NCBI GenBank assembly: GCA_002633005.1
Contig: NMRA01000165.1
Coordinates: 439,541-503,540, forward strand
From: Phoronis australis
Lineage: Eukaryota > Animalia > Phoronida
Direction: 5' to 3'
DNA length: 64,000 nucleotides
Part shown: in pieces, positions 21,533 through 56,742 of the stretch
How positions within the stretch are numbered: the first letter of the stretch is position 1
Layout: every line of letters starts with the position of its first letter
Position numbers and translations under genes: made by a program
Notes under the pieces: generated by a model
What the model was told of the DNA's origin: nothing
The model's database searches: none
What the model saw: the letters and a program-made list of their open reading frames with translations, nothing else

Positions 21533-21662
21533 ATGGACACCAAACCCTCATCAAAGCTAAACAGACAGGATAGTTTGAAGTATGAAACCAAATACCTTGT
21601 TCTAAAGTTTCTCTACCAGCCACCATGTCCCACATTGTATCAGCCACAGGGCACGGATCAGG
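21533..21662 (+). CDS. BCL2L13: BCL2L13-like coding exon 1 (MDTKPSSKLNRQDSLKYETKYLVLKFLY..., BH4-like helix)
   Basis: tacag|AG ATG; YETKY motif; GTGAGT donor, phase 1. Confidence 0.92.
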
Positions 21663-24600: not shown

Positions 24601-27600
24601 CCCTAGTGTCAATTTTAGTTTTTTACATTTACCTCTGTATCTTCAAAAGTCCTAAACGGATTTTCATAAAATGTAGTACATAAGCACCTATTACTTAGAT
24701 GACGTTGTCCGTTCGTTTTCAGATGGATTCAACATAGTTTGCTCCACCTGGTGGCCATTTTTGCTGTTTTCGAGTCTGTTTTTTGCGTCCACCCCTCTAT
24801 CAATCAAACCGCTCAAAGGATGATTGTGAAAATTGGCATGTATGTGCTTACTATAAAGAGGACAGTTGACAATGATTTTCCGACGATTTTGACTACTGTG
24901 GCGCCTCCTAGTGGCAGTTTTGTTTTTTGCACCTATGGCTGTATCTCCTAAACCGTTCAAAGGATCTTAACTAAATTTAGTAAGTGTATTTATATGATGT
25001 TGATAACAGACGATGGTGACTTTCGGACGAATCTGACTACTGGTGTGCCATCCAGTGGCAATTTTATTTTTTTATGTTTACCTCTGTATGTTCAAAGGTC
25101 CTCAACTCATTTTCATAAAATTTGGCATACTGGCATCTGTTAATTAGGTTTTCTTGTCTGTTTTTTTGGCGTCCACTCGTCTATCAACTAAACCGTTTTC
25201 AGGATAATTGTGAAAATTGGCAGGTATGTTTTTACTATGAAGTGGACGACTGACAATGTTTTTTGACGAGTTCGACTACTGTAGCGCCTCCTAGTGGCAG
25301 TTTTGTTTTTTGCACTCATGGCTGTATCTACTAAACTGTTTGCAGGATCTTTACTTAATTTAGCAAGTGTATTTATATGATATTGACAACAGACGACAAC
25401 GATGGATCTGACTACTGGAGTGGCAATTTTAGTTTTTTACATTTACCAATCTGTATCTTTAAAGGTCCTCAACAGATTTGCATATAGGCATCTATTGGCG
25501 AGATGATGATATCGTATAGAGGTATTTTGCGCCTCGTAGTGGCCATTTTTGCTATTTTCAAATCTTGTTTTTGGCGTCCACCCCTCAATCAACCAAATCA
25601 CATTATACGGATGGTTTTGAAAATTGGCCTGTATGTTTTTAGTGTGAAGAGGACGTTTGATGATGGCGACTGACTACTGTGGCGCCTCCTAGTGGTAGTT
25701 TTGTATTGTTGTTTTTTGCCTATAGTTGTATCTCCAAAACTCACTGCAGTATCTTTATTAAATTTATTAAGTGAATTGATATGAAGATAACAGACAACTA
25801 CTTTCAAGCGTATCGAACGGACGCTGTGCCCACAAGTAACAATTTCATTTTGTTCTGTTTCTTTTGTTTTGCTGAAGTTCCTTGACAGGTTTTGTGAAAT
25901 ATGGCATGTTCCCGTTTTGCCCCATCTAGTGGCCATTTTTATGATACTATTAAATAACCCTAAAAGCACACAATTTGCGATGCATTCGTGGGCGCATTTC
26001 AACGCTCCGTGTTGCTCTTCTTAACTAGCGCCAGCTGATGTCAGCTTTATGGGTAGGTTTCAAAATGATTTTTGTGTAGATCAACCAAATATGTTTCTGT
26101 TTTTGGCCTAATATTTTATCAGTAATTATACAACATTCATGCTTGTAAGGAACACAAGCATGTACAGTACAAGCCAAAGGTATTCAGAAAAAATGTCTCG
26201 GAATATCGCCTCATGGTGGCTGGGCAGAAGCCAAATTCGTTGTCCAAGTAGTCTTCCTTCGTGACGGAGAATAATGGGAAATTAAGGTGGCAGTTAGACC
26301 GGTGGCTATGCCAGTCTGTCATTAGAATTTTTACGGCCCTAAAAATTATTACAGGTCATTTTTGCTGTTAATAGAATTAGTAGTTAGGACTGGAAAACAA
26401 TAGTAAATCCGATTTCTTTTGTCTTGTACTGTGACACTTGTGTGGTTGTTTCCAGATAATAGTTTGTCCAGTGTGACAGCCAGGTCACTGAGTCTGTCTG
26501 AGCAGAGGAGTGACAGAACAAAACTGTCACTTGATCTCACTCGTGACATATCACATTCAGGCTACGCTTTCAAGCCTGAAGATGTCTCTGCCATCACAGG
26601 GGAGATTGAGAAGGGAGTTTCGCCTGAGATTGACCGTCTTCGTCAGGGTTAGTAGTAATTCAGTTCAGTAGTCATTTCCTGTTTGAAAATCAACTCACCA
26701 AATGACGTGTGGTGAAGCATAGTCTCGCTGTTTTGTAATGTTTCTAAAACAGATTTTTATATGATCAACTTTTTGAACATTAATTGAAGATAATTGTTTA
26801 AATTTCAAGGGAATGCTCCTGTGGTCTCTAGTAGGTTAATGGCAGTTTGTTTTTTTTCATGGCAATTAATGAAATTATTGTAATATATGTCATTTCTCCC
26901 CTTTATTTGACATAGCAAGTTCTGTAGTTGTGTAGTTGTGAATTTTGTCATCCAAGTTAACACTCAAAGGAATATTTCAATGTACATTCTAGTTCCTGTT
27001 GAATCCCCCATTTTAAGCCATGCCGAGGCTGAGAATGAAGTTGTGCATCAAATCCGAACTATCGGTGATGAGGTTTGTATATCATGGTGTCGTGAAGGAA
27101 TTACAAGCTGCTCTTTCATTAAATATATACAATAGTCACACTCTCATATGCAACAGTTTTCAAAGAACACTTGGCATTATCATCACCAAAATCTTGAAAT
27201 AAATGTTCTGGTTAAATCTTTTCAATTGGTGTACAGTTATGTTTTCTTGTGATTTCGTCATCATTTTTGCTGTGGGTTTGAAGAAACTTGGCATGATTTA
27301 ACATACTTAGTGAAATCTTAATATTTAGCTTTATTGAGGTGTTTGGGGGTGTTCACTTTTAAAATACTTTCTTTTGGTAAACAGCGTATCTTTGATATCA
27401 GAGCCAGTTCACACTACCTTGTGTTTTTCTGTAGACAGTTTTTATCAGGGCTTGGAAATTTTCCTGTTGTAAGAGGATTTCCTCTTCTGGTTTCGATTTC
27501 CTCTTATTTGGTTTCCAGTTTTCACTTTTTTGACCTCATTTATGCAAAAAAAATGTTTCTTGTAGTTTGTAAAACATGTCATCTGCAAAATTGTCCTCTT

Positions 27601-30600
27601 TTTTGTCGTTGGTCATTCCAAACCCTGTTTTATTGCTGTAGGCTCTGATGAATCATTTTCTCTTTGGCAGGTGAATGTTCGGTTTGCAAATGAGATCAGA
27701 CAAGCCAACAAATACCTGTTGGGCTCGTTTACCTATGAACAGTTCAAGAATGTAATGAGGACTCTCACTCAAGACATTAATGCCTCAGGATGGCACCAGG
27801 CAAGCAAATCACACCTATTGTCGGTGTACACCAAATGTGAAACATCCTCTCATTTGAACATTGAGTTTCATTTTGAAATCATGTCAGTGTACACCAAACG
27901 TGAAACATCTTCTCATTTGAACAGTTAGTTTCATTTTGAAATCATGTCAGATGACTCTTATGGATGGGCATGTTTGTTGCCTTATCGTAGTAAAGGTCAG
28001 ACTGTTACTGTCTGATTTCTTTTATGACTTACGGGCAAAACTAAATTGGTGTGTCGTACCTTTGAAATTCTTTGGAATCAGTTTTCAGTGATAATATGCC
28101 AATTTCTTCATTAAACTGCTCTCCTTTGGCTCTGGATCTTAATGATTTGATAGTGGTAAATGGAACAATTCAGAGTTCTAGTTTAAGTTTTTGGCAGAAT
28201 TTGGTGGTAAGATGCATCTCACGTTCAAAGTTTAATGCTTTGGCTGAAGATTCTGTGGAATGATTAAGAATTCTACGAGAGTAGAAAAAATCTTCCAAAA
28301 CACTAGAAAAATGCAATGTTTCAACATAGAACAAACTAATTTCTCACTGTTCTTTGTAGGTTGCCCTGGTGATGTCTTTCAGCCAACAGCTGGCATTTTT
28401 CTCTGTAAAACGGGGTCAGAAATTTTTGAGTGATCTTGGAGAGTACACAACTGACTACATCATGGAAAAGAGTGCTGACTTCATTATAAGACAAGGAGGC
28501 TGGGTGAGGGAGGAAACTTTGTTCATGTAGCGGTTATAGCAACCAGTTTTATGTGCCCACATAGGACCACATCATGCCCTCATCTCCATACGTCTTCTGT
28601 CCCATGCAGTATCTCCAAAACCCCTGGATGGATGCTCATAAAATTTTTCAGACATGTTTCCATAATGAAGGGGACAGCAAGAGGGCAATTTCAGACGTTT
28701 CTGCTAACTGATGTCCCCTCAAGTGGCAATTTTAGTTTTTACATTTGCCTCTGAGTTCCTTATTACAGATTTTTATGAAGTTAAACAACACCACCTTCTC
28801 ATTTTCATATGTATTTGATGTATTCTGCGCTACCAGGTAGCGGTTTTTGCTGTTCTCGAGTCATCTGGCTCCTATTGGCTAAACCACTCTAAGAATCACT
28901 ATGACAATTGGCATGTGTCCATACTTTTCAATATAGTTTATTATAGTTGCCACTGTAACAATATTCAAGTTTTATGCCAACTTAAAGGCGAAGGCAACCT
29001 TTTTTCATGTCATTTTTAGTAAAAATAAGGTTCGTTGATTATCCCAGACATATTTTTCACTTATTTACTGCTTTTCGTAATTTAATTAATTACTTGTTGT
29101 CTACTCAGGAAGTGACGTTTTGGGAGGCAAGAATTTGGCGCCAATTTCTTTTCATATAGTCTGACTGTGAGAGCAGTCGAGTCAGTCATTGTTTTACCTC
29201 GGTTGTAATAAGTTCGGTCGTCGTTTGTTTTTGCTTTCGAGTCAGTCAACATGCCACGCTGTTGCTGCGTACTGGGATGTATTCATTATCGTCTCACGTA
29301 CAGAGGAAGAACTGTCCCACTTGCCCGAGTGTCCCGCGACACACTCCCACTGGAGGGTGATCTGAACACCCAAACTGCTTACATCACGCCGTGTGACTCC
29401 CTTGTCACGCACCTGGCACCTTCCAAATAGCTCCAATACAAGTCCACAATAAACTTATCAAACTTAGGCTCACCGATCTGTTCATTGGATGACGAACTGT
29501 CCTCTTCACTGGGTGTCGAACTGGGCCTGTATTCACTACCACTACTCAACATCGCTGCAGGGCTGCTTACAGGCTCTGCCGGGGCTAGAGACAACAATAC
29601 AGGGTGAATCACTGCTAGTTCCCGGAACTGTACGCAATGGGGTACGTTCGGAGGCACGAGTGACAGTAGATAAAGTGCCTTCAGTCATTGTATATAGTGG
29701 CCACAGCTCGCGAGGCTTCTCGCTTCAAAAATGCACTTCTCGGGGGTGGCGACGGGGCATCGCTGGGAATCAGCAGCGACGGTATGGTACCCTTCTTCAG
29801 GCGTTGTTTCGCAGGGACCTTCATCAATTCAGCGTTCAGTGACATGAAAAAAGATTTCCTTCGCCTTTAGAAGCGAAGGCAACCTATTTTCATGTTATTT
29901 TTAGCAAAAATAAGGTTCGTTGATTGTCCCAGACATATTTTCCACTTAATTACAGCTTTTCGTAATTTGATTAATTATTCGTTCTCTACTCCGGAAGTGA
30001 CGTTTTAGGAGGCAACGATTTCGCGCCAATTTCTTTTCCCGTAGTTTGACTATATGAGCATTGACGAGTCAGTCATTGATCTACCTCGGTTGTCATAAGT
30101 TCAGTCGTCGTTTGCTTTTGTTTACGAGTCAGTCAACATGCCACACTGTTGCTGCCTATCGAGATGGCCCAAAGTCTGTAAGCAGCCCTGCTGCGATGTT
30201 GAGTAGTGGGAGTGAATACAGGCCCTGTTCGAGTACACCCAGTGAAGAGGACAGTTTGTCGTTCAAGGAACAGATCGGTGAGCCAAACTTTGATAAGTTT
30301 ATTGTGGTCTTGTCTAAAGTATTGGAGCTATTTAGAAGGTGCCAGGTGTGTGGCGAGGGTGTAAGCAATTTGTGTGCTCAGGTCACTATCAGTGGGAGTG
30401 TGTCACGGACACTCTGGCATGTGGGACAGTTGCTCCCCTGTTCGTGAGACGATAATGAGTACATCCCGGTACGCAGCAACAGTGTGGCATGTTGACTGAC
30501 TCATAAACAAAAGCACACGATGACCGAACTTATTAAAACTGTGAGATAGAACAATGACTGACTCGGCAGCTCTCACAGTCAGACTATACAAAAAGAAATA

Positions 30601-33600: not shown

Positions 33601-36600
33601 GAGCTACATCCAAGTTCTTGTAAGGAACCCAATCGTTTTTTGTTAAATTCAGAGACCGCTTTGAAGAATGCAATTATATAGAAAGTGGTCTTAAGGTTAT
33701 GAAGTTCTTATCGACAAGCCTAGTGTGTATTGTAACAAATGTCTAAAAACTAAAAAGTCTTTATGAATTCAAAGAAGTCTGTTAAATTTGATGTTCGATT
33801 TATCAATCTGCCATTAATTGTGTAACGTGATATGTCTTTTAAGTAAAATTCAGGAAAAACCTAATTTTCATTGATAACTGTGCCATGATGTCTGAGCATG
33901 ACTAAATTTTGTTTAAAATAATTCAAGATGCAATCTCAAAAACATTTCCAGTTTTCTAAATCATTTTGTTTTCATTTTTGTTTTATTTCCTTTTTACTTT
34001 TTTCATGAAAATTACCAAATTTGGATAGCCAGTCATTCAAATGTGGATCATTTTTAAACAATTTCTCACAGCGTTTTCTTTTTTCTAGCTCACTACATGA
34101 GGCATAGTATCCGATCAATTATTTTTGAGATATCAACAGTTCCAAAGTTGGAATTTGGATATTTTTTGCTACACAATCTTAGGTGGCCTGATGTTTTCGA
34201 ACAAGACTATTAGAATTATTGTATATCTGTAAGATGTTATTGAAACAATAATTCTGGATGTTGTCAAAACCATACTTATGCCAGATATGGATGGTTAAAG
34301 TAATAATTTGAACAAAAGATTTTTCTTGGGCAGGTACCTCCATTCCAGTTATTCACGATTAGAAATGTATAATTTTGCAGGAAGTATTCCCTTGTAAGTA
34401 GTCAATTTGTTGCAAATCCTGCCTACTTATTTCAGGGGTCAATTCAAAAAACACCTCCAGAAAGTCCTGTGTTTGATGGCAGCTCACCGCCGTCTGCTAA
34501 CGTGCTGCCATCAGGTGGTCCTGTAAGTATCACTGGAGACCTAATTTTACACACAGAGCCAGCGTTTATGTAGGCTGAGTACACAAAAAGTGTTGAATAG
34601 TTGGTGTTTAAAACTATATTTCAAACTTGCCCATGTTTTAAGATTGGCAAATGATTTCATTACTGATATTTTTGTAATGTATTTTTTCGTAACACTGAGT
34701 CAGGTCTCTCTAAGGAAGAGACTCTTCACTTTGAAGTGGGAAAAACTCTGCTCAGGGTTCATCAAGGCTGGCAGTCAAATCTATAACCTCTCCCACATGC
34801 TCACTGGTTACATAAAATCCTAAAAATTGCTGGTGTAATGTCACCATAGCTACATGTACATCTTGTAATAATGTTATAATCAAGTAGCAAGATAGTAGTG
34901 CGTGCAAATTAGTAGTCTTACAATTCAACTAGATCCAGAGCCATTTTTGTTGTTCGTGCAAAACAAAACCAACATTTGAATGAATTCATTATGACTAACT
35001 ATATCTTGTCGAGCTTTCCACTCATAAAAGCAACTCTTTGTCTCCTTTCTGCTTACTAATGACTTGCTTTCCTCTGCACAGTCATGCCGTAACACATCTA
35101 GCCGGCTCTCCTCCGACTTCCCTTTCTATGACACGAAGAGCACACTCAGTTTGGAGTCTCTGCTTCGGAAAGTAAAGAAAGACCCCGCCCCCTGCGGCCA
35201 CACATCATGTAGCTGCAGAGAGAGGTCAGATGATGATTCCTATTACAGAGCCTCCTTAAACTGGGACAATATTTGTTACCAGGACCGACGAGGAGCATCG
35301 TCCACTTTCCCATCCATGTGTAATGAGAATATACGTGAGTTAGCCGAGGCGTGGGCCGAAGCCAAGCAAATGAAGCTCCCCTCAACCAGTCCCACTTCAG
35401 GGGAGTCGGACTACTACTCGGCCTACTCAGACTACCACCGTCCAGACACGGCTGAAGTAATCGACTGTCCTGTAGCACCGACTGATGAGGAGGTGTCCAC
35501 CGAAGCTGACAGTGACCTGGAGTCGGAACCATCAAATTCTGCTGCTGAGATGCTTGAGGTGCAAGGCGTGTATTACAAGCAGGTGTCCAGCAGTCCAGAC
35601 ACTGGTCAACGCCGTTTGATTGTATCTAGCCTCTTGCCCCCTCGCACCAGGGTAAAAACTTCAAAGAAGTTCAGCATCTCCAAAGCTGCTGCATTTGTCA
35701 GCAAAGAGTCAGCATCAGAGAGTGGAAGTACTACCTCAACAGACTCAGCAGTGTCTGGTACTCCAGAGTTTCCGATCTCTGAGGAGTTACTTGAACAGAT
35801 TAAGCACATTGAGGTGCTGGTGGTCAGTGAGAAAGAGACATCTAGCAGTGACAGTGAAGAGGAAGGCAGACACCAGCCAATGTGCACCCTCGGCCGAGTT
35901 TGCGGAGCTGATCCTGCAGTAAGCATTGACAATGAAGTGCAACATAGCAAAGACAGTAGTAGTAGTAGTAGCTGCATTAGTTTACAGAGAGCTGGTGAGT
36001 CATTTGCAGTTGATGCTGTGGGTGCAGTGCCAATAAGGATCGATTGCCGTGACAACAAGTTGAAGTTCAAGATAGCTGGCTCCATGACTCACACCTTTGG
36101 TGACTCATTACAAGGCATGGAGAAAAACTGGGAGTTTGCAAGTGGTGGCGAGGAGTACAACGTGCACACCCCAAAGCAATTCAGAGACGAGACTTACCAG
36201 AGGGAGTGTGAGGGGTCATTCTGTGTTCCTAACTTCATCATCAGCCCTTCTCGAGATAGTGTTTTTACTTCTGTCGTCTTGACTAACAGTGAACATGATG
36301 TGGTGTCCTGTAACGATGTCTGGGAAGATGCCCAAGAGTATACAGAGATGCCGTCACCACCAACCACCATTGTACACCCTTCTTTGGCTTCCTTGAAGAC
36401 ACACAGAACTGTAGATACTAGCCCATCAGTTTCAGCAGTGCCTTTGTTGAAGACAAGCGTGGAGCCAGCTAGTATAAGTACTTCCATTTCTAGCTCTCTG
36501 TTGCTACGTAAACGCGATTGTGAGAATGCTGTTCCGTTGTCAGATGTTCACAGTTCACTATTGACTATGGGCGGAAAATCAGACAGTCAAGCCATGAAGT

Positions 36601-39600
36601 CGCTGTTGAAAGTTACTTTACCAAATGACAATAAGGGAACCAAATATCGTAGTCCGCTGAAAAGTACTGAAATTTCAATCAAAGAATTTTCAGGTTCATC
36701 TTTAGCTGAGGACAAAAATACTTACAATGAACAGGTGACAGGTCTCAAACAAGATACTGAAAATGCGCAACAGATGAGCATGATGAAAGGTATGGCAGAA
36801 AGTGTGTCAGAGGACAATAAAGATGCTGGCAATAGTTCATGGCACTTGCGTGATCCCTGTAGGTCATCTGAACCAGACGGAAATACAGATAAGGATACTG
36901 ATGTCCAATACGCTGACAATGATAAGAGCTCCGTTCTGCTAACAAACACTGAAGAGCTGTCTTGCATTACAGATGCTGGAGAAAACAAAACAAAATCTGA
37001 TCGTGATCTTCAGTTGAGAAGCAATATCAGAGAAACAAGTGCTACTGAATGTGGCACCAGTCAGGGTATAGTTTTATGTAACGGTAGTCCTTCTGCCAAA
37101 CATTTGTCTGAAAGTGTTATCACTCAAGATTGTGATGAATTATCTGTGGTGTCTTCAAAACAGACACCTGCAAATGAAAATAAAACTGATAGCACTAAAT
37201 ATGCATCACAGAATGTGGATCCCGCTGATGGTTACCAATCATTAGAATGTCCAAGTGAAGGTGGCACTTTTCAGAAAATTGAAGGAAATACTTCCCAGAA
37301 GACCAACTATGATAATTCACAGAACAGAGACGGTGACACCTCTCAATGCTCAGAAGATGATCCAGTTCAGACCACCAAAGAGGACAGTTCTGAGATGATC
37401 ATGCATGATGGATCCCAGAGCAATGAAGACAATAATTACCAGAATACAGAATATGGCACCATTCAAATAACCGAAGACGAAACTTCTCATAATATAGAAG
37501 GTGATACTTCTCAGAACACTGAAGGTGACTCTCCTCCGAACACACAAGGTGACACTTTCCCAAACACTGAAGGTGACACTTCTCAGAGCACAGAAGGTGA
37601 CACTTCTCAGAGAACAGAAGGTGACACTTCTCAGAGAACAGAAGGTGACACTTCTCAGAGCACAGAAGGTGACACTTCTCAGAGAACAGAAGGTGACACT
37701 TCTCAGAGAACAGAAGGTGACACTTCTCAGAAGACTGAAGGAGATACTTCACAAACATCTTCTGAACATGGCAGTTCAGAGAACATTAAATATGATGCAT
37801 CTCAAACTGGTGTAAAGTGCAACAATACAGTTGTTTCCCCGGAAGTTTTTGATGGGCCACCACAAAAGGGCTCTGAAAGTGTTACAGAAGATCACCTCCA
37901 AAGTGTCGCTGTTGGAAAGGCTATCCCATGTCGAAATAACTTAGCTCCTACACTGCCTGCAATTGACTGTGATGTGGAACACTATCCATGTAATTCTGTC
38001 ACTGTGACTAATGACACAATTAGCCAAACAGATGAAGTGTCCTTTGAGTATGAGACCAGTGTGATGAGTACTCAGACGGAGGATCCAGTTCACAGTACTG
38101 ATATGGGGGTGCAGTACTCACCCTGCATGGATAATGAAACTACACAAACAAGCCAAACTAGTATCACTGGCAGCACCATTTGGACTTCTTTGTCAACCAG
38201 GAGAAAAGAAGACAAAGGTTTTCAGTTTTGTCCCTGTACAGATGAAGTACCGTCGCAAACTGAAAGTAATGGACCAAATGTAATGCAAACTCAAACGAAA
38301 CTTCTGAATTACAGCGAGCAGTTTGCTTCTTTATCTGAGGCCGCAACCAAACAAACTTTGGAAAATGCAAGTGGGGTATGTAACACAATTGGTAGTAAGA
38401 AGAAATTGTGGGATTGCTCAATTATCCAACTAGGCAAGTCGGTGAGCATTTCAAAGAGGAAACAGAGTGCTGAGAGAGAGAAGGAACTGGCAGAGATACG
38501 AAAGTCACAGTGGCAAGCTGCATCTAATATGGTTAGCTGTTTGGGCATTAAACCAGAGAAGGTGAGATTTTCGGTCGATGGAATCAACTTTGTGAAGCTA
38601 GAAACAGGCCCAACTGGCAAAAGTGAGCGCCATCAGTGGATGGAAGACAAATTTATTGAGCGAGCACTGAGACGGTCGCCTAGGAAAGATAAACACATTG
38701 ATGATACAGTTGAGGCACGCGATTCTGAAGTCGGTTTGAATCAACTGGCCAAGAATCAGTACAAATCACCTACTGCATTGCGGCTAGCCATGAATACCTC
38801 AAGTAATGAAATGACTGAGAGGAATGTAAAAGAAGTGTTTGATGAGGCTAAAAACGGCAATTTTGGTGAAATAAGAGGTGGTGACGAATCTATGCCATTG
38901 CCTGGATTATCCAGTTCTGATGTAGTTGAAAACGAAAGTTCATCTACATCTGAAGTAACATCTGTCAGCCTGTCATTGGATAACAGTGAATCTAAGCTGC
39001 AGGTAAGTGGTGATCTTCAAAAGAGATTTCTTAAGACAGCCAGGGCTACCAAGACATTACATCACAAAGGCAAAGATGAGGTCACAGGGCAAGACTGTGA
39101 GCATACTACCACTAGGGGAAATACACACTCTGAAAGAAATCAGTCCAACAATCATGGATATGACATGATTTCAAGTGAGGGTCTTCAAGAAAATGAAAAT
39201 ATTTCAGCTCCAGGAACAAGTCACCATCCTTCAGCTGGCACAAGTCAGTCTGAAAATGTGGTTAGTGGTAAGAACGTCACTGAAGTTAATGGCACTGTCG
39301 GCCAATGTAGAGTTGAAAATACAAAGAAAAAAGTTGAAAATGCTGACATCCCTAATGCTGGTGGTGGTGGGGTTTTATTCCATGGCCCTGCATTCATAAA
39401 AAGTAATTTTCAGTGTTCTTACAGCAAAGGATCAGATTACAATAGCAAAAGAGCAGTGGCAGAGGTGCTTGTTGATGGAGAGGAGTCCAGACACGAGTCT
39501 TCATGTACTACCAAAGCTCAAAGGAGTGATGAATCACATGCGTCAAGAAGACACTTCTGTTTTCCAGTAGATAGTATTTCACAAGACCTAACTACTGCCC

Positions 39601-42600
39601 ATCAGTGGCACAATCTTCACCCAAAAGATAGTCTGACTGTCAATTTGCCTAGTTCACTGTGGCATATGGGGAAGGCTTCATCCTCCAACCAGCCCACTGT
39701 GAGTGTGCACATTCCTGAGTCAGTACGTGAAATGACAGTCCGGTATGGAAATTGCACTCCTGCCGAATTTAGGACTGTGTCTACGAGTAGACCATCACTT
39801 CCAACTCCCTTAAAGTTGGATAGAAGTATGGAAATTCTGAGTTCCTCTTGCAAACATTTGAGTCCCTTGAAGGAAGTTGAGGTAAATGATGAAGAACGGG
39901 CTTATAAACCAGCATGTATTAAAGCTGACATACTGGAAACAGGGCAGCAAAGTAAGGGGCATGTTGGTCAGTCAGAGACAGAACCACTTAACACAGCTCA
40001 TTTTAAGTTCTGGTATGGTTGCAGCCCATCTTTGCTAGCTGCTAAGGAAAAAGGTTTGGGTGTGACAGGCTCTTCTAAGTATAAAACACGTGAAGAGTTG
40101 TGTCCGAAAAAAGGATCACTTCATGCAACGATCAATCAACTAGAGGAAGTTGTGGGTCCGCAGACTGACGTGACTGACATCATGTCTGTTTTGCAGCAGA
40201 TGAATCACTCTCTACAAGAACTGCAGAACTATCAAAGCAAAATGATGTCTGAGAATATAACAAAGTTCTCCACAAAGCAAGCAAGTGATGAAAAGACCAT
40301 CGAGGAAGCTCACACTTCGTCCGTTGCTGGGCATGGTGTATACCGAAGAGACATTAACCTTACTCAGAGTTTCAAGTACAACCAGGTTTGTGTGGATCCC
40401 AATAAGGAGTGCAAGGCATCAAATAGAACCAATGATAGGAGCAGCATGATAGTCAATGTTGGAGAGGAAAGTCCCGATACACGTAGCATTCTGACAGGGA
40501 CCCCACGGGAATTAGTCGATGACTTAGAAAGTATGTACTCACCAGGCCAAAGCGCCATTAGTTCTGGTCTAAGTATTCTGTCCCAAACCCCCAGCGTCAC
40601 CGCTAGCAAGAATTGCTTCGACTTTGAGAGCTGCAGTCTTAGAAAAGAATCAATACGTAGAGACAAGGGTAGTCGGGACTCGTTTAGTCGGAAGTCTGTC
40701 AGATGGTGGCCTGGTCTACATGTCCAGTGCGATGTTGCTGAACACAATTCGGGTGAGTCTGCTCACCCATTAGTGTCAGCAGCTTGTTTTTCTACTCACA
40801 AACAACCTACAATTTCTTTTGCAAAATTAATGCTTCTGGTTGGTATTGAGCATTTCAACTTTTGTTTTGCTTTAATGCTCTGCGCATTTTGCATTAACCA
40901 TCTCGTTGCTGTTATGTAAAGTACAATCTGCATGTTCCTGCACCTGTTATGTTTCAGAAGGAACTCCTAATACTGTTTTCTGTTTGAACATGCACTGTTC
41001 TTGGAAATCTGTTGATGAACCGATAGGTTATTTGAACGTAAAAAATCTTTAAATAGGTTACTTTATTCTCAAAATGGTGTTTTTGTAAGAATATACTCCA
41101 TGCATGGTGCAGTGGTTTTCTTAGTACCATTCCAATACTGGATGAACACTGGACAATGAGTTGTGTCAGATATTTTTTGCCTCATTTTTTAAAATCATTC
41201 ATTACTTATCACTTTTTAGTTATACCGATTTAACGGTATTATGCAGTTTTCATGTGTTTGGCTATGTAATCACAATAAGTGGTTAGCATGCAAAGTCCAC
41301 TTTAATCAACTCTAAACCCATCATCCATCGCAAAAACCAAGTTTGTTTTGACCACTTACCATTAGGAAATAGTTATCAAATTGTCTCTTAGTCATGTTAG
41401 AGGTGACAATAATGCTTGGAATGAAGAAACAGTTCAGTATTGCTTGACACCAGGATCTAGTCGGTGTAACATTTCTGCGCTAAGCATAGTATTACGGAAC
41501 CACAGTCAATTCTTTGCAAACCCAGAAATCACTTTTCATCTCAATATTAAGGAAAAGATTGAAATAAATTTCTTATCGGAAACTAGCTTATTTAAATCAA
41601 AAATTCTTCGTAGGCAGAGAATGGGTCTATAGCCACTTTTTCAAAACTGTGGAATTGTTCTCGACATTCTCACTTGTAAAGAATGAGCAGTCAAGCCTAT
41701 TAATGTTCTTTTAATTTAATTTACTTTCAGAGCAAACGGCAGTAGATGCTTGCCACATGTCAAGTGTGAATCAGTCATCCACACCCTCCACTCAGCAAAG
41801 CACACCAAACACATTGAAGCAATCCGTTAGTCTCGTCGCTAATGTACCCAGTTCATTATTGCTTGTCAACTCACATGACTCTAAAGCTGAAGAGATTTGT
41901 ATGTTTGTTGAGTCTGATGACAGGATCACAGACCAATCAACTTCCAAGATGTCTAAGATAATGAGAAACAAAAAACTTTGCAAGGAAGGATTTGTTCATC
42001 CCAGAGGGATCAGACATTCTCCAATTTCTGATAAAACTAAGTCGCAGTCTGTGGGTCAGGCTATGAAGTCCTCTTCTATGTCTTTACTGGTAGGAGCCAT
42101 CGATTCCCCTGCATCACTGGCTAACATCCCGCAAAAAGTACTCCCTCCCTCCGACAGTCTTCTTGTTGCTGTTACAGAGTCACTGTACCAACGACAGGGG
42201 ATTGACCAACCATCTCATATGGACAATCTTGGTATCAGTCCTTGTTCATTTGAAGAAAGTGGGTCATCAAGTTCGAAAGAAGAGAATTCAACAGCCAAAC
42301 AAGTCATTGTTAACCGGACATCAACACTCACTGTAGAAACGAAACCTCAGAAGTTGTTTAACACAAGCAGCTCAGACAGTACTGTGCATCCACAAGAGAG
42401 TATATCAGAGATGAGCCGTGATGAAATCACGCATTCAAGTCCAAGGTTCTCAACCACGATGTCATCCTCTTCAAGTGACAGCTCTGAGAAACTTGTTAGC
42501 TCAGTTGACCTAGAGGTGGGACACAAGAATAAGCACCGTGATAATGTCCCTGGTCAGCACCGGGATTCCTTGAATGAAAAGGTCATGGACACTCAAGATT

Positions 42601-45600
42601 TTGACCATGTGGAAGAGAACAGGACTTCACACCAGCAAATCGATTATCAACCAACAACAGACTTGTCTACTGCAAGAAACATGGCTCCATTTTTCATGGG
42701 CTGCTCTGACATATTTGATGACTTTGACGTTGCACAATCCTCTAGGTATGGATGTTCCAATATAGTACTCATTTCCCCTCAGTCTGGTTCGGTCTATTCA
42801 ACAAAGGAGGAAGTTAAACCTGCGACAACCAATAAAAAACTATCCGATACTGATTTGTACAAGGTCAAAAGTGCCTCATCTCATACTCGTGAGTGGCGTG
42901 GACAAACAACTAACTTGTACCGCCCTCAAAGAATAGAATCGATCTTCAATGGCACAAATAAACAAAAAGAGGAGCAGCGGCTATGGCAGAAGACAACTGG
43001 TGACGACCTGCAATCGAGTTCCCCTACAGTGCGAAATGAATTGTTACTCTCTGGTTTGCCCAAGCAGACTTCCACACAGACAAATATATCTGACAGTGAT
43101 TGCTTTAAAATTGAACAAAAATCCAGTAGAAATACTCCCAGCACAAAGGAGACATGTAGAGATGTGAATGTTTGTAAATACCAAAAGCCTGTTGCATCAA
43201 ACGTTTCAACACAAATTAGTTCCTCTCATGGAAGTTGTCATGACAAAAGTGAAGAAATTGACAAGACTGGCTTACACCAAAGTTATCCAGTTGGTGGATA
43301 TGTTTTTGCAATTCAGGAGATTCCATTCGGTTTCACGAAATTGAAGCCTCCAATGGTTTCTGTAAGTACTCAATATTCTCACAGCGTTAATGACCTGTCA
43401 GAAGACCATGTGCAGGCTGAGATCAACACGCAACAAGAACAACTATTTCATAGGTTAAGACAGGAAAGAATGCAGGGTACAACATCGAACGTGATTTGCG
43501 ATTTTGACACAATTTTGTTGTCATATATGGCTGCTGTTTTTAAGACCATGTTAAAGAAGAGGTTACAACAGGCCGTCATGTCCAAATATTTTATGCCCGG
43601 CATACAGAGTGTTTTCACTGATCCATGTTTAAGCCTTCTCCATGATGAGAACTTTTCTGGCTTGCAACTAAGTCTCGTACAAACCATAACCAATAACATT
43701 ATGGACAGTATTTTGGATCGTGTTCAGTGTGATGGAAGCCAAAGTAATGTACGATATTCCCTTCCTGGAACAATTCCGAGTTCTCAGACAGATTTCGTAG
43801 TATTGCTTAACAGAGTTGAACAGCGGCTTGACCAAAGTCTCCAGGGGTTTCGCTCCCAGTTGGAAAGGTTAACTGTCAGTGGTTTGATGTCTCAGCCAGT
43901 TGCATCCAGGTTTCAAACTGCTCTAGTACACGTACTTAGTAGTGAATTGCTGCAACCTGTCTTAAATGGAGCACTGACTATGGAACCTCGCACAATTTTG
44001 GTGGTTGGACAGAAGATCGCTCATGCTGCCCTTCAAATAGATGGTGTTCAACAACTGCTGGACAAACTCACTGATCCCCTAACGCCCAGCTGCCAGTCAC
44101 TCGTAGATGACATCAACCGTTCTTCTCGCAATATTTCTTGCCGCGAAATACAGTCATTGTTTCTTTATATCCTGCTTGCTGCAGACGCATGCAGAATTCT
44201 CCAGTCTGATATCACAACTGCAGTCAGACGAGTGGTGACCTCAGAAACGTTCAATGAACAACTCCGTTCAGTTATAGGACGACAGAGAAACTCACCCAGT
44301 GCGGCAAATGACATTGCGTGGTTTTTGACTGACCAAATTCTTGAAACTTTGATAGTTGCCGAAGTGGATCTCGATAAGGAAGCTAATTGTGAATACGATA
44401 TGAACCATGATATACGCTGTGATACTGTAAGGTTTATGAAGGTCGTTGAGGAATGTTTGAGTTTTAGTTCATTGGAAAATCAACTTAGGTCGTGCTCAAT
44501 TCATTTGAAATGTACCGTTAATGCATATCAATCGTTTCTAGCCCGCACAATGCAGGCACCTGTTCGTTACTTACTGCACAACTTGATCAAAACTCAACCC
44601 CGTCATGACGATTTGTTCATGTTTCTGGTCGACCCCATCTTGCACGATTTCGTTGAGCCCTTGTTGCATTGTGGCTTCNTCACAACTGCAGTCAGACGAG
44701 TGGTTACCTCGGAAACGTTCAACGAACAACTCCGTTCAGTTATAGGACGACAGAGAAACTCACCCAGTGCGGCAAATGACATTGCCTGGTTTTTGACTGA
44801 CCAAATTCTTGAAACTTTGATAGCTGCCGAAGTGGATCTCGATAAGGAAGCTAATTGTGAATACGATATGAACCATGATATACGCTGTGATACTGTAAGG
44901 TTTATGAAGGTCGTTGAGGAATGTTTGAGTTTTAGTTCATTGGAAAATCAACTTAGGTCGTGCTCAATTCATTTGAAATGTACCGTTAATGCATATCAAT
45001 CGTTTCTAGCCCGCACAATGCAGGCACCTGTTCGTTACTTACTGCACAACTTGATCAAAACTCAACCCCGTCATGACGATTTGTTCATGTTTCTGGTCGA
45101 CCCCATCTTGCACGATTTCGTTGAGCCCTTGTTGCATTGTGGCTTCGGCGACATTGAACGTATGAAGACATGGCTTATAGAAACGTTAGCTCAAAGTACC
45201 TTGTCTCACAGTTGTATCCCTGCTTTTATTGCTCAAGCACTCCACACAGTCTTTCCTGAGAGGATGTCGTTTAATGTGCACCAGTTCAATTACAACACGT
45301 TGTCAAGCAACCAGTTACTGCCCATTGTGTGTAGGCTGTTGGTAGATTATTACGCTCACCGCGCAACATTTGAGCTTGTCGTTGTACCTCTAACTGAAGT
45401 TGTTAGCGACCAGGGAGTTCATGGTTACTACGGGATGCGCGCAAGTAGTACTGAAGAGGAATGCAATAAACTCATTTCGAATCTGTCGAACTTAGTGTTC
45501 TCCGAAATGTGGCGGCTGATGTCTGGTGGACCACGACTGGATTTCTCCAAACTCTTGCACTTGTCTACCCACATGACCCAATTTCTGGTATCTGTCCAAA

Positions 45601-48600
45601 ATGATCTCCATGCTCACCTAACTTCTCCTTCGCTATCTCAAAGAGCGTCAATAAAAACCGCAGTAGAGAAGATCTTGTCTACTGGATTTCACCCTGCACT
45701 TAGCACAGCCGTAGAAGATGCCACCCTGCGTGTAATTGCTGAAAGGGTTTTATCTTGTGATCAGCGCCAGCCGCTCTCAGAGTTCATAACTATTTCCAAT
45801 ACCAATGAAGTTATTGCGGAAGTGTTAAAACGACCCAACATTCAGAACATCGTCTTAGCGTCATTCGGTTGTTCTCCAGTCGACCTGGAAGGGAATTCTT
45901 GGGGTGTGACAAAAGACAATTGTCTTGATTTTTTCGGCGGACTCTTACACGACTGCCTGCGTGCTGCTGTTCTTTCTACGACAGTATATGATGATGTTCT
46001 GAATTGTCTTCCTTACTTCGACGGGCGAACGAGTATCCATCAATTCATGAAGGAGTTACTGTCCCAGGCTGTTGCAAAGGAAACACTAAAGAAGTTGCAC
46101 GAGTATGTCCTAACATCTTCTAATCAGAAATTTGATTTCTTGTATCCAGTCTCTCCAGATGAGCGACAACATCCCGCTTACGAAGACGCATTCATTCGTG
46201 TCCTTGGTCTGCCGCACAACAGAACCGTTCTTTATCATCTTCTCATGTCTGTTATTCACGAAAAAGTAGTCAAGCCAGTCTTCTCAAAAAAGGTCTCCAC
46301 GAAGGTTCTTGATGTAGGCGGTGATGCTGTAGCCAGCGTCATAGTAGAGGGTTACCAGGCTGGCGCGAATGTAGACTTGTTTGTTCTCCCAGGGACTCAC
46401 TGTTTGGATGCTATCACTGAAGAAGTCGTTGTGGCCGCTTACTCGTGTGGGCTGTTGTCTGATGTCGTGACTGCTATGGAAGCCAAGGAACATACTCCGA
46501 TACCCGAGGTAAGCTTTTAATGAGCAGCTCATGTCTCAAAGTGATAATTAAAGTGACATTATTGACGAGATGAGTCTTTTTTGTGATCAACCTCAGCGCA
46601 TGAATTCTTTGCTGGTTGAGCTTAATTCATCTCAATATTTTAAACTAATTAAACTGGTTGAGACATTGGCCTAGATTTTAGCGAATATCTGGCAAACAAT
46701 GGTGAGACTGGCGCTTCGAAATAAAACCAACGGATTTTTTAGCTCTGGTCAAAGCTTAGAATCACTTCAAAAAGTCTATCACATTGAACAATACATGTAG
46801 TACCAAAAATGACCTTAAAACGATAAAATGTCATGATTTATCTTATAAACAGATATCAACTACCGCAGCTTTCTGCAGACAATGCCGCCTGCTCTGAAAT
46901 AACCCTTTAGGGCGTATACAAGGAAATTCTCCCAAAACTCCCAGGGCTTGTATTTGCATAGAAACTACATTTTCGATCTTTTTAATAAAAACTTTTACCG
47001 ATTTCATGGAAGTGGACTCTTTAGGACCTTGCATTTGCCGTCTCGTACACTCTGCTGTGAAGATTATCTAGGACCGTAGAAAAACGTTCAAATTTGGCTA
47101 ACTTTGGTCCATCATGTTTTAGAAACATTAAAATGTAGTTCTTGGGTCATCCGTGAAATGCATGCTATTGTCTCTCATTCACCGCACGAATCCTTCAGTA
47201 AATAACCTTTCTGAATTATTGAGCCTGTGCAAATTTTGTGTAACATTGGAAAAGGATTGAGTGTCATTTTCAATTATCAGCTCTTCATTATTCTTCAATA
47301 ACTTTGTTACTTTGGTATTTCAATGGATTATAGTTCTAGTACCTCATTGTGTTTTCATGCACGTTGTAATTAGACGATTGCCGTACCTTGTGTTCTATTA
47401 TTACATATTCCAGCGCTAGATGGGGAAAGTCGTTTTTAAAGCTGCATTACCCCTTGTTTAGCCAAAAAAACGAAAGTCGAATTTTGCATTTTTCTCATAA
47501 AGTCGATCTCGTAACATTCCTGTCATCGAAAACGAGGGTTAGCCGACTCTAAAATCGTGCCTTAGCTGTGACTTGAATTACTGACTAATTCGACAATAAT
47601 TGTTCAGTAGATCGGGTGACCGTGGTTATGTTTGAAACCCCTAAACGCATGGGAATTCAACATTAACAAAAACGTCCCTTTAATATCTGTTGATTGGCCA
47701 AAACCCGATTTGGTATCCGTTTAAGTTTCTCATTTTAATTTTGTGCCTAGTAATAAAATAACGGCTATAGTATTGCTAGCGAAGGATGAAAATCTTCTGA
47801 CTTCAATTTGGTGGTGGAAAACTAGATTTCAATGTGTTTTATTGCCACTGAACATTCTGGATTATCTTCTTTATTCAAATGGCATGTGTTCGTGCATTGC
47901 GTCACCGATTGGCGACGTCATTCTGGTGTCCCTGCTGAGCTCATGTAAAACATTATGACGTCACGGGTGTCGACCTGCGCTATGTGATCCAATAAACAGT
48001 CAGTGCTCTTGCTACTGCCCAGGGGCTGCACGTGAACATCTATGAAATGGCCGCAGCTCCTGAGGACGCTAAAGTGACTGAGGTTTGGGGTCCTTCCTAC
48101 AAATACCTTGTGGGCGACGACGAATACGTTATTCAGTCCAGACGTACCCAGGCAACTAGCGACGGGCACGTGCCTGAGATGGTAATCCCCGGGTGTGCCA
48201 CGTCTGCAAGAACGATTGAAATGAGCATCAACAACAATCGTTTATCTGGCTCTACGTCGATTTCGTCGGACGTTGCACATTTGTGCCTCAGTGATGATGT
48301 CCGATATTGCAATATGATTACCGATAGCAAAGATTTTGCACAACAAAAAGGTGGACATGGCGATCCCCCCTCTCAGATGTTGGCTACTGCTGACCTGCAG
48401 TACATAAAAGAAGCTTGCTTACGAGATACGAGAGAATTCTTGCTTCGCTCGCAGAGGAAGAGGTATTATCTCGACAAAACTACGCGTGCCATTGACAGGT
48501 CTATAAGGAAAGCTTTTCGGAGGGAAGAACCATTTGTTAAGAGACCTCAGAAGCATTATCGTAAAAAGCATCAGGTAGAATAGGGCGAGTGCTCAATTTA

Positions 48601-49961
48601 AGAAGAAAGTTCCTTTAAGTATTCGTCTCGATGGTTATTTCGGGTAATATCTTGCAGTTTCATTTTATTTATTTCCTTCCTCCCCGGGTAAATTTTCTCA
48701 AAATGAATTATATTTTTTCTTTTAGGCGCAGTCGAAACCTGGGCCTGTCGAATCCAAACCCAAAACACCAACACGCAAGCCTCATCAAATCTCAGTCGGC
48801 CTTAAGGAGTGGGTTCGCCTGTACGTGGATCATGTACTCTTTAGAACGACACAACAAACAGACACGAAGGCTTTTACCACTAGGACGCCCATTCCTGTCT
48901 TCTCGTCTACTTCGTCAATACCATTTCCCGATAGTCGTTACGGGTCTAGTGTGTCTTCCGTGACAACAGAACATTCCACCATCAGCGTCATCCATGTTGA
49001 AACTCAGACGTCACGTGCTCAGGTTGTGGAGCACTTACCTGCAAGACTCCCGAAAGTCGATAGCAAGTGCGTTGGAGTGACGCCAGACTGTCTAGATGAG
49101 CAACGGTCGGCGGAAACAGGAGAAAACGATAAAGACATTGAGGTTGTCAAGCAATGGCTTGACAATACGGGTGGAGCTTATAAGGAAGTGAAGTCTGGCA
49201 GTAGCCAGAGCAGTGCCACCTCACGAGTTTACGAGGGGGACGATGGGCATCTGATAGTGCCACAGGACAGACGATCTAGTGTTGATACAGGCACTAAAAA
49301 CTTGCATGTCAGTGAACCTTCTAACGATCAATCGGAAGAAACTATTCAGGTACCCAGCAGGCCTCATAGTAAGTCTGTACGTGCCAGTCCGACGTATCCC
49401 GAAGACCAAGCATGGAAGCTCGTGCATAGGGCGTCTGCGCCTCCTTTAAGTAAAGAGCAAACTGTCGCTCTCAGCGCCCTGACTGTCACGCCATCGGACG
49501 AACCCGACGTCTGCACATTATCTCCGCTCTCTTATCAGCCACAGACCACATCCCGTTCGTCATCAACACGCATCAGAAACCCACCTCGAGCTCTGACCCT
49601 ACCTTTCGCAACGGACTGTGTCTCTCATGTTCCAGGCGTCGGTCTTAGCGATCAAGATGCTCTTCTGTTGCGTACCACCGATGCCGCCAGTAGACAGTCG
49701 AGAAGCAGGACGCATATGCATCAGATGGTGATAAACCTTGGACACCGTATCTGTGACATGTTGTCGTCCACGACTGCTGACGACAGCACGGGCGGCATTT
49801 GGCCGTGGTGTGCGGTAGGTGTCGCTGTAGGGCTTGTGGGCGTTTACTGTCTAACGAGGAACAGTTCTTACCCGCGTCTCTTATCTGTAGACAACAATAA
49901 TGTAAGAAGCGTTGTCTGGATACCGTCAGTGAGGCTAGAGAACTTTGTGTCACCTGATTAA
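21533..49961 (+). CDS. BCL2L13: Bcl-2-like protein 13 (Bcl-rambo) orthologue; giant predicted isoform of about 4,203 aa (4,359 aa as assembled)
   Basis: Phase-compatible exons 21533-21662, 22714-22794, 26456-26647, 26993-27072, 27671-27799, 28360-28503, 34436-34522, 35082-40752, 41731-46508, 48023-48574, 48726-49961. Motifs YETKYLVLKFL, TYEQF...NASGWHQ, KRGQKFLS, ADFIIRQGGW and PPESP match recalled human BCL2L13 (YETKYVVLSYL, TYQAF...HASGWNK, RRGQEPLS, AEYIIQQGGW, PPESP). A hydrophobic anchor lies near the C-terminus, and the gene is head-to-head with ATP6V1E. Joining of the giant exons is inferred from splice signals only. Confidence 0.8.
22714..22794 (+). CDS. BCL2L13: BCL2L13-like exon 2 (VDSGQERSFVGQDDLQVDGGGPDYDET)
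   Basis: ttttacag acceptor, GTAAGA donor, 81 nt, phase 1-1, open frame. Confidence 0.8.
23252..23411. repeat. Minisatellite of about 43-46 bp, about 4 copies (CACTAAGATGGACCTACTTCCTGTTATGAGAAACAGGCT...)
   Basis: Read directly from the sequence; imperfect copies. Confidence 0.85.
24405..26022 (+). mobile_element. HINE-like element, copy 3 (opposite orientation)
   Basis: TTTTTTATGCGCCCACATAT start, (GTCC)-like microsatellite, tandem subunits, end GTGGGCGCATTTCAACGCTCCGTGTTGCTCTT. Confidence 0.75.
26456..26647 (+). CDS. BCL2L13: BCL2L13-like exon 3 (DNSLSSVTARS...EIEKGVSPEIDRLRQ)
   Basis: tttccag acceptor, GTTAGT donor, 192 nt, phase 1-1. Confidence 0.8.
26993..27072 (+). CDS. BCL2L13: BCL2L13-like exon 4 with BH3 (ENEVVHQIRTIGDE)
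   Basis: ttctag acceptor, GTTTGT donor, phase 1-0; BH3 core IxxIGDE. Confidence 0.88.
27671..27799 (+). CDS. BCL2L13: BCL2L13-like exon 5 (VNVRFANE...TYEQFKNVMRTLTQDINASGWHQ)
   Basis: ggcag acceptor; non-canonical GC donor (CAG|GCAAGC); 129 nt. Confidence 0.88.
27819..27949. repeat. Tandem duplication of about 63 bp just downstream of the GC donor
   Basis: TGTC[G/A]GTGTACACCAAA..TGAAACATC..CTCATTTGAACA..AGTTTCATTTTGAAATCATGTCAG occurs twice. Confidence 0.85.
28360..28503 (+). CDS. BCL2L13: BCL2L13-like exon 6 with BH2 (VALVMSF...KSADFIIRQGGW)
   Basis: ttgtag acceptor; GTGAGG donor right after GGW (typical Bcl-2 family intron position); 144 nt. Confidence 0.93.
28547..28920 (+). mobile_element. 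Degenerate partial HINE-like copy
   Basis: TTTTATGTGCCCACAT start, TATCTCCAAAAC and AGTGGCAATTTTAGTTTTTACATTT shared with copy 3. Confidence 0.55.
28986..29866 (-). mobile_element. Kolobok-like non-autonomous transposon A with THAP and transposase remnants
   Basis: TTAA|AGGCGAAGGCAACC ... TTTCCTTCGCCT|TTAG; minus strand encodes KQRLKKGTIPSLL..RSAFLKRE (THAP C-terminal AVPT-like box) and [33 protein letters not shown]. Confidence 0.75.
29871..30757 (+). mobile_element. Kolobok-like non-autonomous transposon B with long inverted arms (about 280 bp)
   Basis: TTAG|AAGCGAAGGCAACC ... GGTTGCCTTCACCT|TTAA; arms are reverse complements of each other; interior [24 protein letters not shown]. Confidence 0.78.
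31846..33264. mobile_element. Non-autonomous DNA transposon with CAC..GTG ends and a 5-bp target-site duplication (Transib-like)
   Basis: ACCTG|CACGGGTGAGAAACAACGTGACCGCCGGTCCTC ... GAGGACCGGCGGTCATGTTGTTTCTCACCTGTG|ACCTG; inverted arms of about 150-175 bp built of subrepeats. Confidence 0.8.
34436..34522 (+). CDS. BCL2L13: BCL2L13-like exon 7 (GSIQKTPPESPVFDGSSPPSANVLPSGGP)
   Basis: tttcag acceptor, GTAAGT donor, 87 nt, phase 0-0; PPESP motif. Confidence 0.75.
35082..40752 (+). CDS. Giant coding exon (5,671 nt), Ser/Thr/Glu-rich and probably disordered; inferred exon 8 of the BCL2L13-like gene
   Basis: Lies within the 1951-aa ORF; branch point TACTAAT near 35054, pyrimidine tract and CAG at 35079-35081 (phase 0); donor G|GTGAGT at 40752/40753 (phase 1). 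Confidence 0.85.
37495..37755 (+). repeat. Coding 24-bp minisatellite (TEGDTSQ[R/S]), about 11 copies, with more degenerate units upstream
   Basis: GAAGGTGACACTTCTCAGAGAACA units in frame inside the giant exon. Confidence 0.93.
41731..46508 (+). CDS. Giant coding exon (4,778 nt as assembled); disordered N-half, hydrophobic helical C-half; inferred exon 9
   Basis: ttactttcag acceptor, phase 1, in frame with the 1587-aa ORF; donor GAG|GTAAGC, phase 0. Confidence 0.85.
44212..45146 (+). other. 467-bp tandem duplication separated by a single N; probable haplotype-overlap assembly artefact
   Basis: 44212-44678 matches 44680-45146 apart from five substitutions (four synonymous, one V/A); N at 44679. 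Confidence 0.85.
48023..48574 (+). CDS. Inferred exon 10 (GLHVNIYEMAAAPED...KHYRKKHQ)
   Basis: ctgcccag acceptor phase 0; CAG|GTAGAA donor phase 0; covers the 183-aa ORF. Confidence 0.7.
48726..49961 (+). CDS. Inferred terminal exon with C-terminal transmembrane segment (IWPWCAVGVAVGLVGVYCLTR)
   Basis: ttttctttag acceptor phase 0, in frame with the 378-aa ORF; TAA stop; hydrophobic segment resembles a Bcl-2 family tail anchor. Confidence 0.8.
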   Translation, partial: AQSKPGPVESKPKTPTRKPHQISVGLKEWVRLYVDHVLFRTTQQTDTKAFTTRTPIPVFSSTSSIPFPDSRYGSSVSSVTTEHSTISVIHVETQTSRAQVVEHLPARLPKVDSKCVGVTPDCLDEQRSAETGENDKDIEVVKQWLDNTGGAYKEVKSGSSQSSATSRVYEGDDGHLIVPQDRRSSVDTGTKNLHVSEPSNDQSEETIQVPSRPHSKSVRASPTYPEDQAWKLVHRASAPPLSKEQTVALSALTVTPSDEPDVCTLSPLSYQPQTTSRSSSTRIRNPPRALTLPFATDCVSHVPGVGLSDQDALLLRTTDAASRQSRSRTHMHQMVINLGHRICDMLSSTTADDSTGGIWPWCAVGVAVGLVGVYCLTRNSSYPRLLSVDNNNVRSVVWIPSVRLENFVSPD

Positions 49962-50719: not shown

Positions 50720-50725
50720 AATAAA
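50720..50725 (+). terminator. Candidate polyadenylation signal of the BCL2L13-like gene
   Basis: AATAAA followed about 15 nt later by a GT/T-rich tract (cttgtttttgttgtttttt), after an AT-rich 3'UTR. Confidence 0.5.
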
Positions 50726-53588: not shown

Positions 53589-53630
53589 TCAGTCCAACTC
53601 GAAATCACTGCTATCCTCTACCATGGAGTC
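53589..53630 (-). CDS. BID-like gene, terminal coding exon (DSMVEDSSDFELD*)
   Basis: tcttatag acceptor phase 0; TGA stop; AT-rich UTR follows, with minus-strand AATAAA near 52512 and 52335. Confidence 0.7.
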   Translation of the reverse strand, partial: DSMVEDSSDFELD

Positions 53631-56712: not shown

Positions 56713-56742
56713 CTGAAACAACCAAAAACAGCACTTGGTATG

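Follow-up and report, generated by a model that had tools for sequence, protein, structure and literature searches.

A probable Bcl-2-family gene of Phoronis australis with two giant exons between its Bcl-2-homology region and a predicted tail anchor

How far can the Bcl-2 fold be moved from its membrane anchor within the product of a single gene? The proteins that make up the Bcl-2 family are small, about 200-500 residues in length, and carry a globular fold at or near the outer mitochondrial membrane. The question is raised by a window of 64,000 nucleotides (nt) from the phoronid Phoronis australis (assembly GCA_002633005.1, contig NMRA01000165.1, positions 439,541 to 503,540 of the forward strand; positions below are counted from the first letter of the window). 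Its + strand holds stop-to-stop frames at 35028-40919 (1,963 amino acids, aa) and 41715-46520 (1,601 aa), with further frames downstream at 47996-48583 and 48726-49961, and exons of Bcl-2-homology (BH) type lie ahead of them. These parts probably belong to one Bcl-2-family gene, in which spliced BH exons lead through two giant exons to a predicted tail anchor; the encoded protein, at about 3,992 residues roughly eight times as large as human Bcl-rambo, would have the plan of an enormously stretched Bcl-rambo.

The exon structure was examined using three stranded paired-end RNA-seq runs (X1, X2 and X3) labelled with the same species as the assembly. Reads of X1-X3 were aligned on 28300-48299 and those of X1 and X2 on 34000-53999; at the locus the first mate of X1 and X2 reads lies on the - strand, as is usual for RNA of the + strand. 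Joints were counted from at least three reads upwards, and the list for 34000-53999 is complete at seven rows; junction counts are given as X1/X2 reads. The BH exons are joined in frame, piece by piece, through both giant exons to the anchor exon. The joints 28503>34436 (15/14 reads), 34522>35082 (14/9), 40752>41731 (13/13) and 46508>48726 (67/43) carry GT..AG signals and keep the frame. The junction of exon 4 to exon 5 is represented by 52/39 reads; ahead of the BH2 exon they have loose ends identical to the final 30 bases of exon 4, which ends at 27799. The remaining joints, also GT..AG, were 34522>41731, by which giant exon 1 is skipped, 34522>46393 (3/0), which shifts the frame, 48574>48726 and 48462>48726 (1/3). 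A joint 34522>48726, which would keep the frame, was not seen in the complete list for X1 and X2, and the only in-frame path from BH region to anchor in these runs therefore passes through both giant exons.

A preliminary description of the locus had proposed five junctions with canonical splice signals at every exon end. The signals were confirmed by inspection of the sequence, and four of the junctions (28503>34436, 34522>35082, 40752>41731 and 48574>48726) are supported by reads. The fifth, 46508>48023, is absent from the complete list and the 46508 donor is joined to 48726, so that the giant transcript does not contain 48023-48574 as an internal exon; the earlier model, with this segment included, also formed one open frame. 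Its removal replaces the coding sequence of 12,612 nt and about 4,200 aa given earlier. When the exons of Table 1 were joined by their coordinates in a script, with one copy of an assembly duplication taken out of 41731-46508, the result was a coding sequence of 11,979 nt in one open frame of 3,992 codons with a single terminal stop.

Table 1. Features of the giant Bcl-2-family locus, in window coordinates (residue numbers refer to the 3,992-residue model)
Feature	Position	Strand	Evidence and remarks
Predicted coding exon 1	21533..21662	+	ATG 21533, in-frame stop just upstream; donor AGG/GTGAGT; splice signal and open frame only
Predicted exon 2	26456..26647	+	phase 1 on both sides; placed by splice signals and open frame
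Predicted exon 3, BH3-like motif IRTIGDE	26993..27072	+	splice signals and frame only
Exon 4, with the beginning of BH1	27671..27799	+	GC donor CAG/GCAAGC; read loose ends map to 27768-27797
Exon 5, rest of BH1 and BH2	28360..28503	+	ends exactly after the GGW codons; PF00452 match; joint 28503>34436
Linker exon, 87 nt	34436..34522	+	donor used with three acceptors, 35082, 41731 and 46393 (joints)
Giant cassette exon 1, 5,671 nt, about 1,890 codons	35082..40752	+	Ser/Thr/Glu-rich; joints on both sides; even + strand depth 13-34
Tandem array, 24-nt unit in 11.5 copies	37482..37757	+	8-residue peptide repeat inside giant exon 1
Giant exon 2, 4,778 nt assembled, 4,310 nt minus duplication	41731..46508	+	polar first third, then Leu/Val-rich part of about 880 residues, predicted helical
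Assembly duplication, two 467-nt copies around the single N at 44679	44212..45146	.	period 468; 462/467 identical, 5 differences
Palindrome TGACGTCA, CRE-like	47956..47963	.	directly ahead of the inferred internal start
First exon of short transcript, likely ATG 48047	47964..48574	+	left-end pile, depth jump, joint 48574>48726; outside the giant transcript
Shared last exon	48726..50685	+	joints from 46508 and 48574; coding part 48726-49961, stop 49959-49961, then about 720 nt of 3' untranslated region
Candidate LC3-interacting motif WKLV	49413..49424	+	acidic lead-in; about 125 residues before the anchor; candidate by motif
Predicted transmembrane anchor, 19 residues	49797..49853 (residues 3939-3957)	+	top Kyte-Doolittle 19-mer
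BH region	residues 1-225		ends in GGW
Polar stretch	residues about 255-2700		Ser 14-17%, Thr 8-9%; includes the 8-residue repeat x 11.5
Leu/Val-rich stretch	residues about 2700-3580		mostly helices in a low-confidence model
Protein part from the last exon	residues 3582-3992		Ser/Thr/Pro-rich

The 468-nt artefact removed in the earlier model was also found here, as a duplication of period 468 beside the N at 44679, one of the two single Ns in the window (the other is at 14256). X1 depth over the two copies was about 32 and about 13, which by hand sum to about 45 as compared with 52-57 in the flanks, and the same RNA variants recur 468 nt apart in both copies. The summed depth near that of the flanks and the matching variants are consistent with a single copy in RNA and a second that is an artefact of the assembly. 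Four of the five differences between the copies are silent.

Whether the giant exons are coding was judged from the length of their frames and from sequence differences. Frames of this length are unable to remain open by chance. In giant exon 2 (41995-45162) about 1% of the positions differ between RNA and assembly, nearly always in all reads, which shows that the animals sequenced were distinct from the one assembled. Among the best-supported 40 of 150 differences, less 3 repeated in the duplicated copy, 37 were distinct, 33 of them in giant exon 2 and 4 in giant exon 1. In the proposed frame 18 of these 37 are synonymous, against 9.7 +/- 2.6 expected under matched random placement (P about 0.002), and the same differences give 4 and 6 synonymous changes in the two other frames. 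The ratio of nonsynonymous to synonymous polymorphism (pN/pS), obtained by hand from the 37 differences, is about 0.4. This synonymous excess points to moderate purifying selection on the giant protein. A transposon origin of the giant frames was rejected, since no such domains were found by Pfam and coverage was unique, single-stranded and even, unlike that of the intron repeats at 28967-33635.

The identity of the BH2 exon proposed earlier was supported by Pfam. In a scan of 10 pieces of the window, which included both giant frames, the BH2 exon, the alternative first exon and the last exon, exon 5 by itself, scanned as the open piece 28360-28527, matched PF00452 over positions 52-100 of the 100-position profile (E 1.3e-6, 29.3 bits). 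None of the other pieces attained the cut-off of any family. The intron at the joint 28503>34436 lies directly after the GGW codons of BH2, and an intron that splits BH2 right after the conserved Trp is a trait of the Bcl-2 family. The best alignment of the BH region to a PDB chain was weak, to Mcl-1 (E 0.91), and ends at the same Trp; a lead from the ESM Atlas for Bcl-2 identity agrees weakly (score 0.79). The motif of predicted exon 3 matches the BH3 pattern, hydrophobic-x-x-x-G-D-E. The match of the BH1-BH2 region to PF00452 is shared with canonical Bcl-2 proteins (Bcl-2, Bcl-xL, Mcl-1), which in contrast have about 200-350 residues and a transmembrane (TM) segment within a few dozen residues after BH2.

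At the other end of the protein, the earlier description of the last exon as bearing the anchor is supported: its frame (48726-49961) holds the most hydrophobic 19-mer among the whole 3,992 aa, with a Kyte-Doolittle value of 1.88, the next best being 1.44. The predicted anchor ends 35 residues before the C-terminus, with Asp-Asp upstream and Thr-Arg downstream. The protein holds 46 core matches to the LC3-interacting motif, of which 2 are of the W type and follow polar or acidic residues; the candidate WKLV belongs to these 2 and, given so many core matches, is treated just as a lead. Between the BH region and the anchor, 609 residues of giant exon 2 were modelled with AlphaFold2 from the single sequence, and the model consisted mostly of helices, with a mean predicted local distance difference test (pLDDT) value of 37.8. 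For the same part the ESM Atlas returned mixed large helical scaffold subunits (Nckap1, NELF-C/D, Med24 and others), the best with a score of 0.92 and 151 shared features, its recognition value of 2027 lying below the 2300 mark. A resemblance of giant exon 2 to helical scaffolds is thus suggested as a lead only.

The order of these parts is that of BCL2L13/BCL-RAMBO. According to the excerpted text of PMC9800997, that protein has 485 aa in human and 434 aa in mouse, the longest human isoform having 509 aa, and consists of four BH motifs, a non-BH insert that is rich in Glu and Ser and contains the LC3-interacting region (LIR) WQQI, a C-terminal TM segment and a short tail. The phoronid protein likewise runs from N-terminal BH motifs through a long Ser-rich non-BH insert to a single C-terminal TM segment. 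Both genes are also divided into several exons, of which the last coding one is large, and both have splice variants without the anchor (PMC9800997). A candidate W-type LC3-interacting motif lies here in the last exon, upstream of the TM segment; in human and mouse the functional motif, WQQI, lies in the insert. We regard the locus as a genuine variant of the Bcl-rambo design, and a very large one. It differs in the insert, which had been described as expanded more than tenfold and indeed measures about 3,700 residues as compared with about 250, about 15 times longer. Here the insert is encoded by two extra giant exons without detectable relatives, and about 880 of its residues are predicted to be helical. 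Other differences are the internal promoter, which gives a BH-less anchored form, the lack of a short in-frame BH-plus-anchor isoform in X1 and X2, and the lack of expression in one of three RNA runs. Flanking of the TM segment by basic residues, as in BCL2L13, was not found.

Several observations weigh against the reading of the locus as a single, stretched Bcl-rambo gene, and concern the gene model, its expression and its relationships. Exons 1-3 were placed by splice signals and open frame, outside the range of read alignment; exon 4 also lies outside that range, and its RNA support consists of the loose ends of its last 30 bases. A single molecule with all exons is beyond the span of short reads. 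The PF00452 score is below the curated 31.4 bits, one exon having been scored. Giant exon 1 is skipped in about 57-59% of the junction reads at the 34522 donor (20/12, as compared with 14/9 including it), and at the anchor exon the junction reads from the short transcript, which lacks the BH domain, outnumber those from giant exon 2 (114/89 against 67/43). Run X3 gave no reads on any exon of the locus with a similar number of reads examined; since it is silent for both promoters, expression is limited by tissue or stage. The tail of 35 residues after the TM segment exceeds the 1-11 residues listed for comparable outer-membrane mitophagy receptors in the excerpt of PMC9800997. None of the protein searches yielded relatives of giant exon 2 or of the last exon, and for giant exon 1 there was no match among Pfam families or solved chains. 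Finally, orthology to BCL2L13 would rest on the architecture and on a motif-level likeness to the human protein at the N-terminus, BH1 and BH2.

The searches for relatives were as follows. Word-index protein searches returned nothing for the giant exon 2 domain against longer proteins, for the last exon against proteins of similar length, or for the BH2 exon against longer proteins. HMMER gave 0 hits for the 1,012-residue C-terminal part of giant exon 2 among 1,835,955,588 representatives, which is weak evidence for a lineage-specific exon because the coverage of animal proteomes carried no positive control. A scan of metagenome contigs matched 136 patterns, none of which was confirmed. Sequence searches of the PDB with both giant frames produced nothing better than E 0.4. 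In Pfam nothing came near the cut-offs for the giant frames, the alternative first exon or the last exon, and no transposon or other known domain was found in them. No giant form was reported in the literature on BCL2L13/Bcl-rambo that was searched. These results suggest that the giant exons may be lineage-specific.

The same searches bear on the orthology of the gene. The architecture could be right and the gene nevertheless be another Bcl-2-family member which, with lineage-specific giant exons and an anchor exon, converged on the Bcl-rambo design. All three word-index searches, that with the BH2 exon included, were negative; the tail after the TM segment is longer than in BCL-RAMBO; and a second Bcl-2-like gene adjoins on the opposite strand, which makes a local duplication possible. 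Such convergence seems unlikely in view of the order of parts (BH motifs, Ser-rich non-BH insert, TM), which equals the definition of BCL-RAMBO in the excerpt of PMC9800997. It is also set against the Bcl-rambo-type genes described in the excerpts at hand from a coral (PMC4715348) and from a squid transcriptome (PMC9389742), given which an invertebrate orthologue is to be expected.

The two splicing and promoter choices noted above have consequences for the products. The length of giant exon 1, 5,671 nt, is 3n+1 and its skipping shifts the frame; the skipped transcript meets a stop after four codons and retains a BH-only frame of 258 aa that lacks the anchor. Based on the junction counts, the giant form makes up about 40% of the output of the BH promoter. 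The short transcript appears to start near 47964, from an inferred internal promoter. Fragment left ends heap at this position (8 and 10 molecules), and depth rises from about 3 to 100/83 at about 48007 with no use of an acceptor at 48023. Its frame, read from the ATG at 48047, has 587 aa with the anchor and no BH domain. The palindrome directly ahead of the start (Table 1) resembles the cyclic AMP response element (CRE). Two short upstream ATGs were seen by eye at 47982-48049 before the ATG of the 587-aa frame, one with an immediate stop and the other with an 11-codon frame; the short form may be translated by way of leaky scanning. The locus thus yields at least three products. Fragment right ends at 50682 and 50685, with depth of about 1 after 50675, mark the 3' end of the transcripts. 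The 3' untranslated region differs from the assembly by a 5-base deletion at 50060 (69/76 and 53/72 reads) and by an inserted A at 50633.

With the skipped form commoner at the 34522 donor and the short transcript contributing the greater number of junction reads to the anchor exon, it could be argued that the giant frame is transcribed but minor or unproductive. The 258-aa soluble BH-only and 587-aa BH-less anchored proteins would then do the work, and the giant exons would serve mainly as substrates of regulated non-productive splicing. This we regard as improbable. Frames of 1,890 and about 1,440 codons could not stay open without coding selection, the synonymous bias of the variants is found in the proposed frame only, all four junctions keep the frame, and about 40% of the junction reads at the 34522 donor include giant exon 1. 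By the exon-junction rule, a stop far upstream of the last junction marks a transcript for decay; the stop of the skipped form is so placed, which makes this form the likelier decay target.

The preliminary description had also considered that the giant exons might belong to a separate transcript with its own promoter, or that the BH transcripts might all end near 34573. RNA depth was about 0-0.5 in the introns ahead of the giant exons, as compared with 13-34 within giant exon 1 and 35-62 within giant exon 2, and no transcript start was seen ahead of either in X1 or X2. Both acceptors, 35082 and 41731, are entered from 34522 or 40752 only. Depth in the bin of the BH2 exon, 11 over 667 nt, corresponds by hand arithmetic to about 50 over the 144-nt exon, the same as in giant exon 2; BH transcripts therefore continue into the giant exons, which have no start of their own. 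Near 34573 there was no sign of polyadenylation or of a transcript end. That there are two genes, a small Bcl-2-family gene and a separate gene for a large anchored protein, with the junction reads as read-through chimeras, is hardly tenable: the anchor exon does have its own promoter near 47964 and no homology links the giant exons to any Bcl-2 gene, but these depths, under which nearly every BH transcript continues, the exclusive use of the two acceptors and the lack of any start, intron coverage or transcript end argue against it.

If the stretched Bcl-rambo reading holds, the giant protein would likely sit in the mitochondrial outer membrane by its C-terminal anchor, and the Bcl-2 fold would be borne by an arm of about 3,700 residues in the cytosol. 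In this arm a helical domain (about 880 residues) would come after a Ser/Thr-rich spacer, probably disordered, that measures about 2,450 residues. Family and anatomy suggest that it might act as a scaffold or as a platform resembling a mitophagy receptor. The choice of exon and of promoter would then determine if BH domain and anchor are made in one protein or in two. On balance we favour the view that this protein, with about 4,000 residues, far exceeds every other recorded member of the Bcl-2 family in size, and that its BH region reaches the anchor only by way of two lineage-specific giant exons. On that view cassette splicing and the internal promoter give an anchored giant, a soluble BH-only protein and a BH-less anchor, and so form a built-in switch that couples or uncouples the fold and the organelle surface. 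A fold on such an arm, together with the new helical domain, would test how far the Bcl-2 design can be stretched, and the three products would clearly illustrate how membrane attachment of a Bcl-2 fold can be controlled at the level of isoforms. The gene offers a natural case for asking whether the Bcl-rambo insert is a spacer, a scaffold or a receptor platform. A gene of this kind could easily be divided or cut short by annotation pipelines.

Giant tail-anchored or membrane-tethered scaffold proteins with very large exons, such as the nesprins, may be compared purely by analogy of function. The phoronid protein would resemble them in its very long cytosolic arm, its C-terminal membrane anchor and the use of internal promoters for short anchored isoforms. 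It differs in that no relation in sequence or domains was found, the Pfam scan giving neither spectrin repeats nor a KASH domain.

Other features were noted in the window. Upstream of the gene, open pieces of a tandem peptide repeat of about 10 residues occur on both strands at 15868-16215 and resemble a minisatellite array. The intron between the BH2 exon and the 87-nt exon is repeat-like at 28967-33635, with RNA on both strands in all three runs including X3, many loose ends and opposite-strand joints such as 29384/30359; these reads are probably derived from transposon copies expressed elsewhere in the genome. On the - strand, a 258-aa open piece at 55982-56755 with runs of proline and no Pfam match may be part of the neighbouring gene or of a third one. 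That neighbour is a second gene of the Bcl-2 family, placed on the - strand in tail-to-tail arrangement with the giant gene. Its piece at 54564-54905 matches PF00452 weakly (E 0.0013, 19.7 bits) and shows a BH2-like GGW at its end. Reads over this gene, whose frame is on the - strand, have the opposite orientation to those of the giant gene, and RNA of this opposite orientation was observed over 52009-53999 in X1 and X2 at a depth of 4-24.

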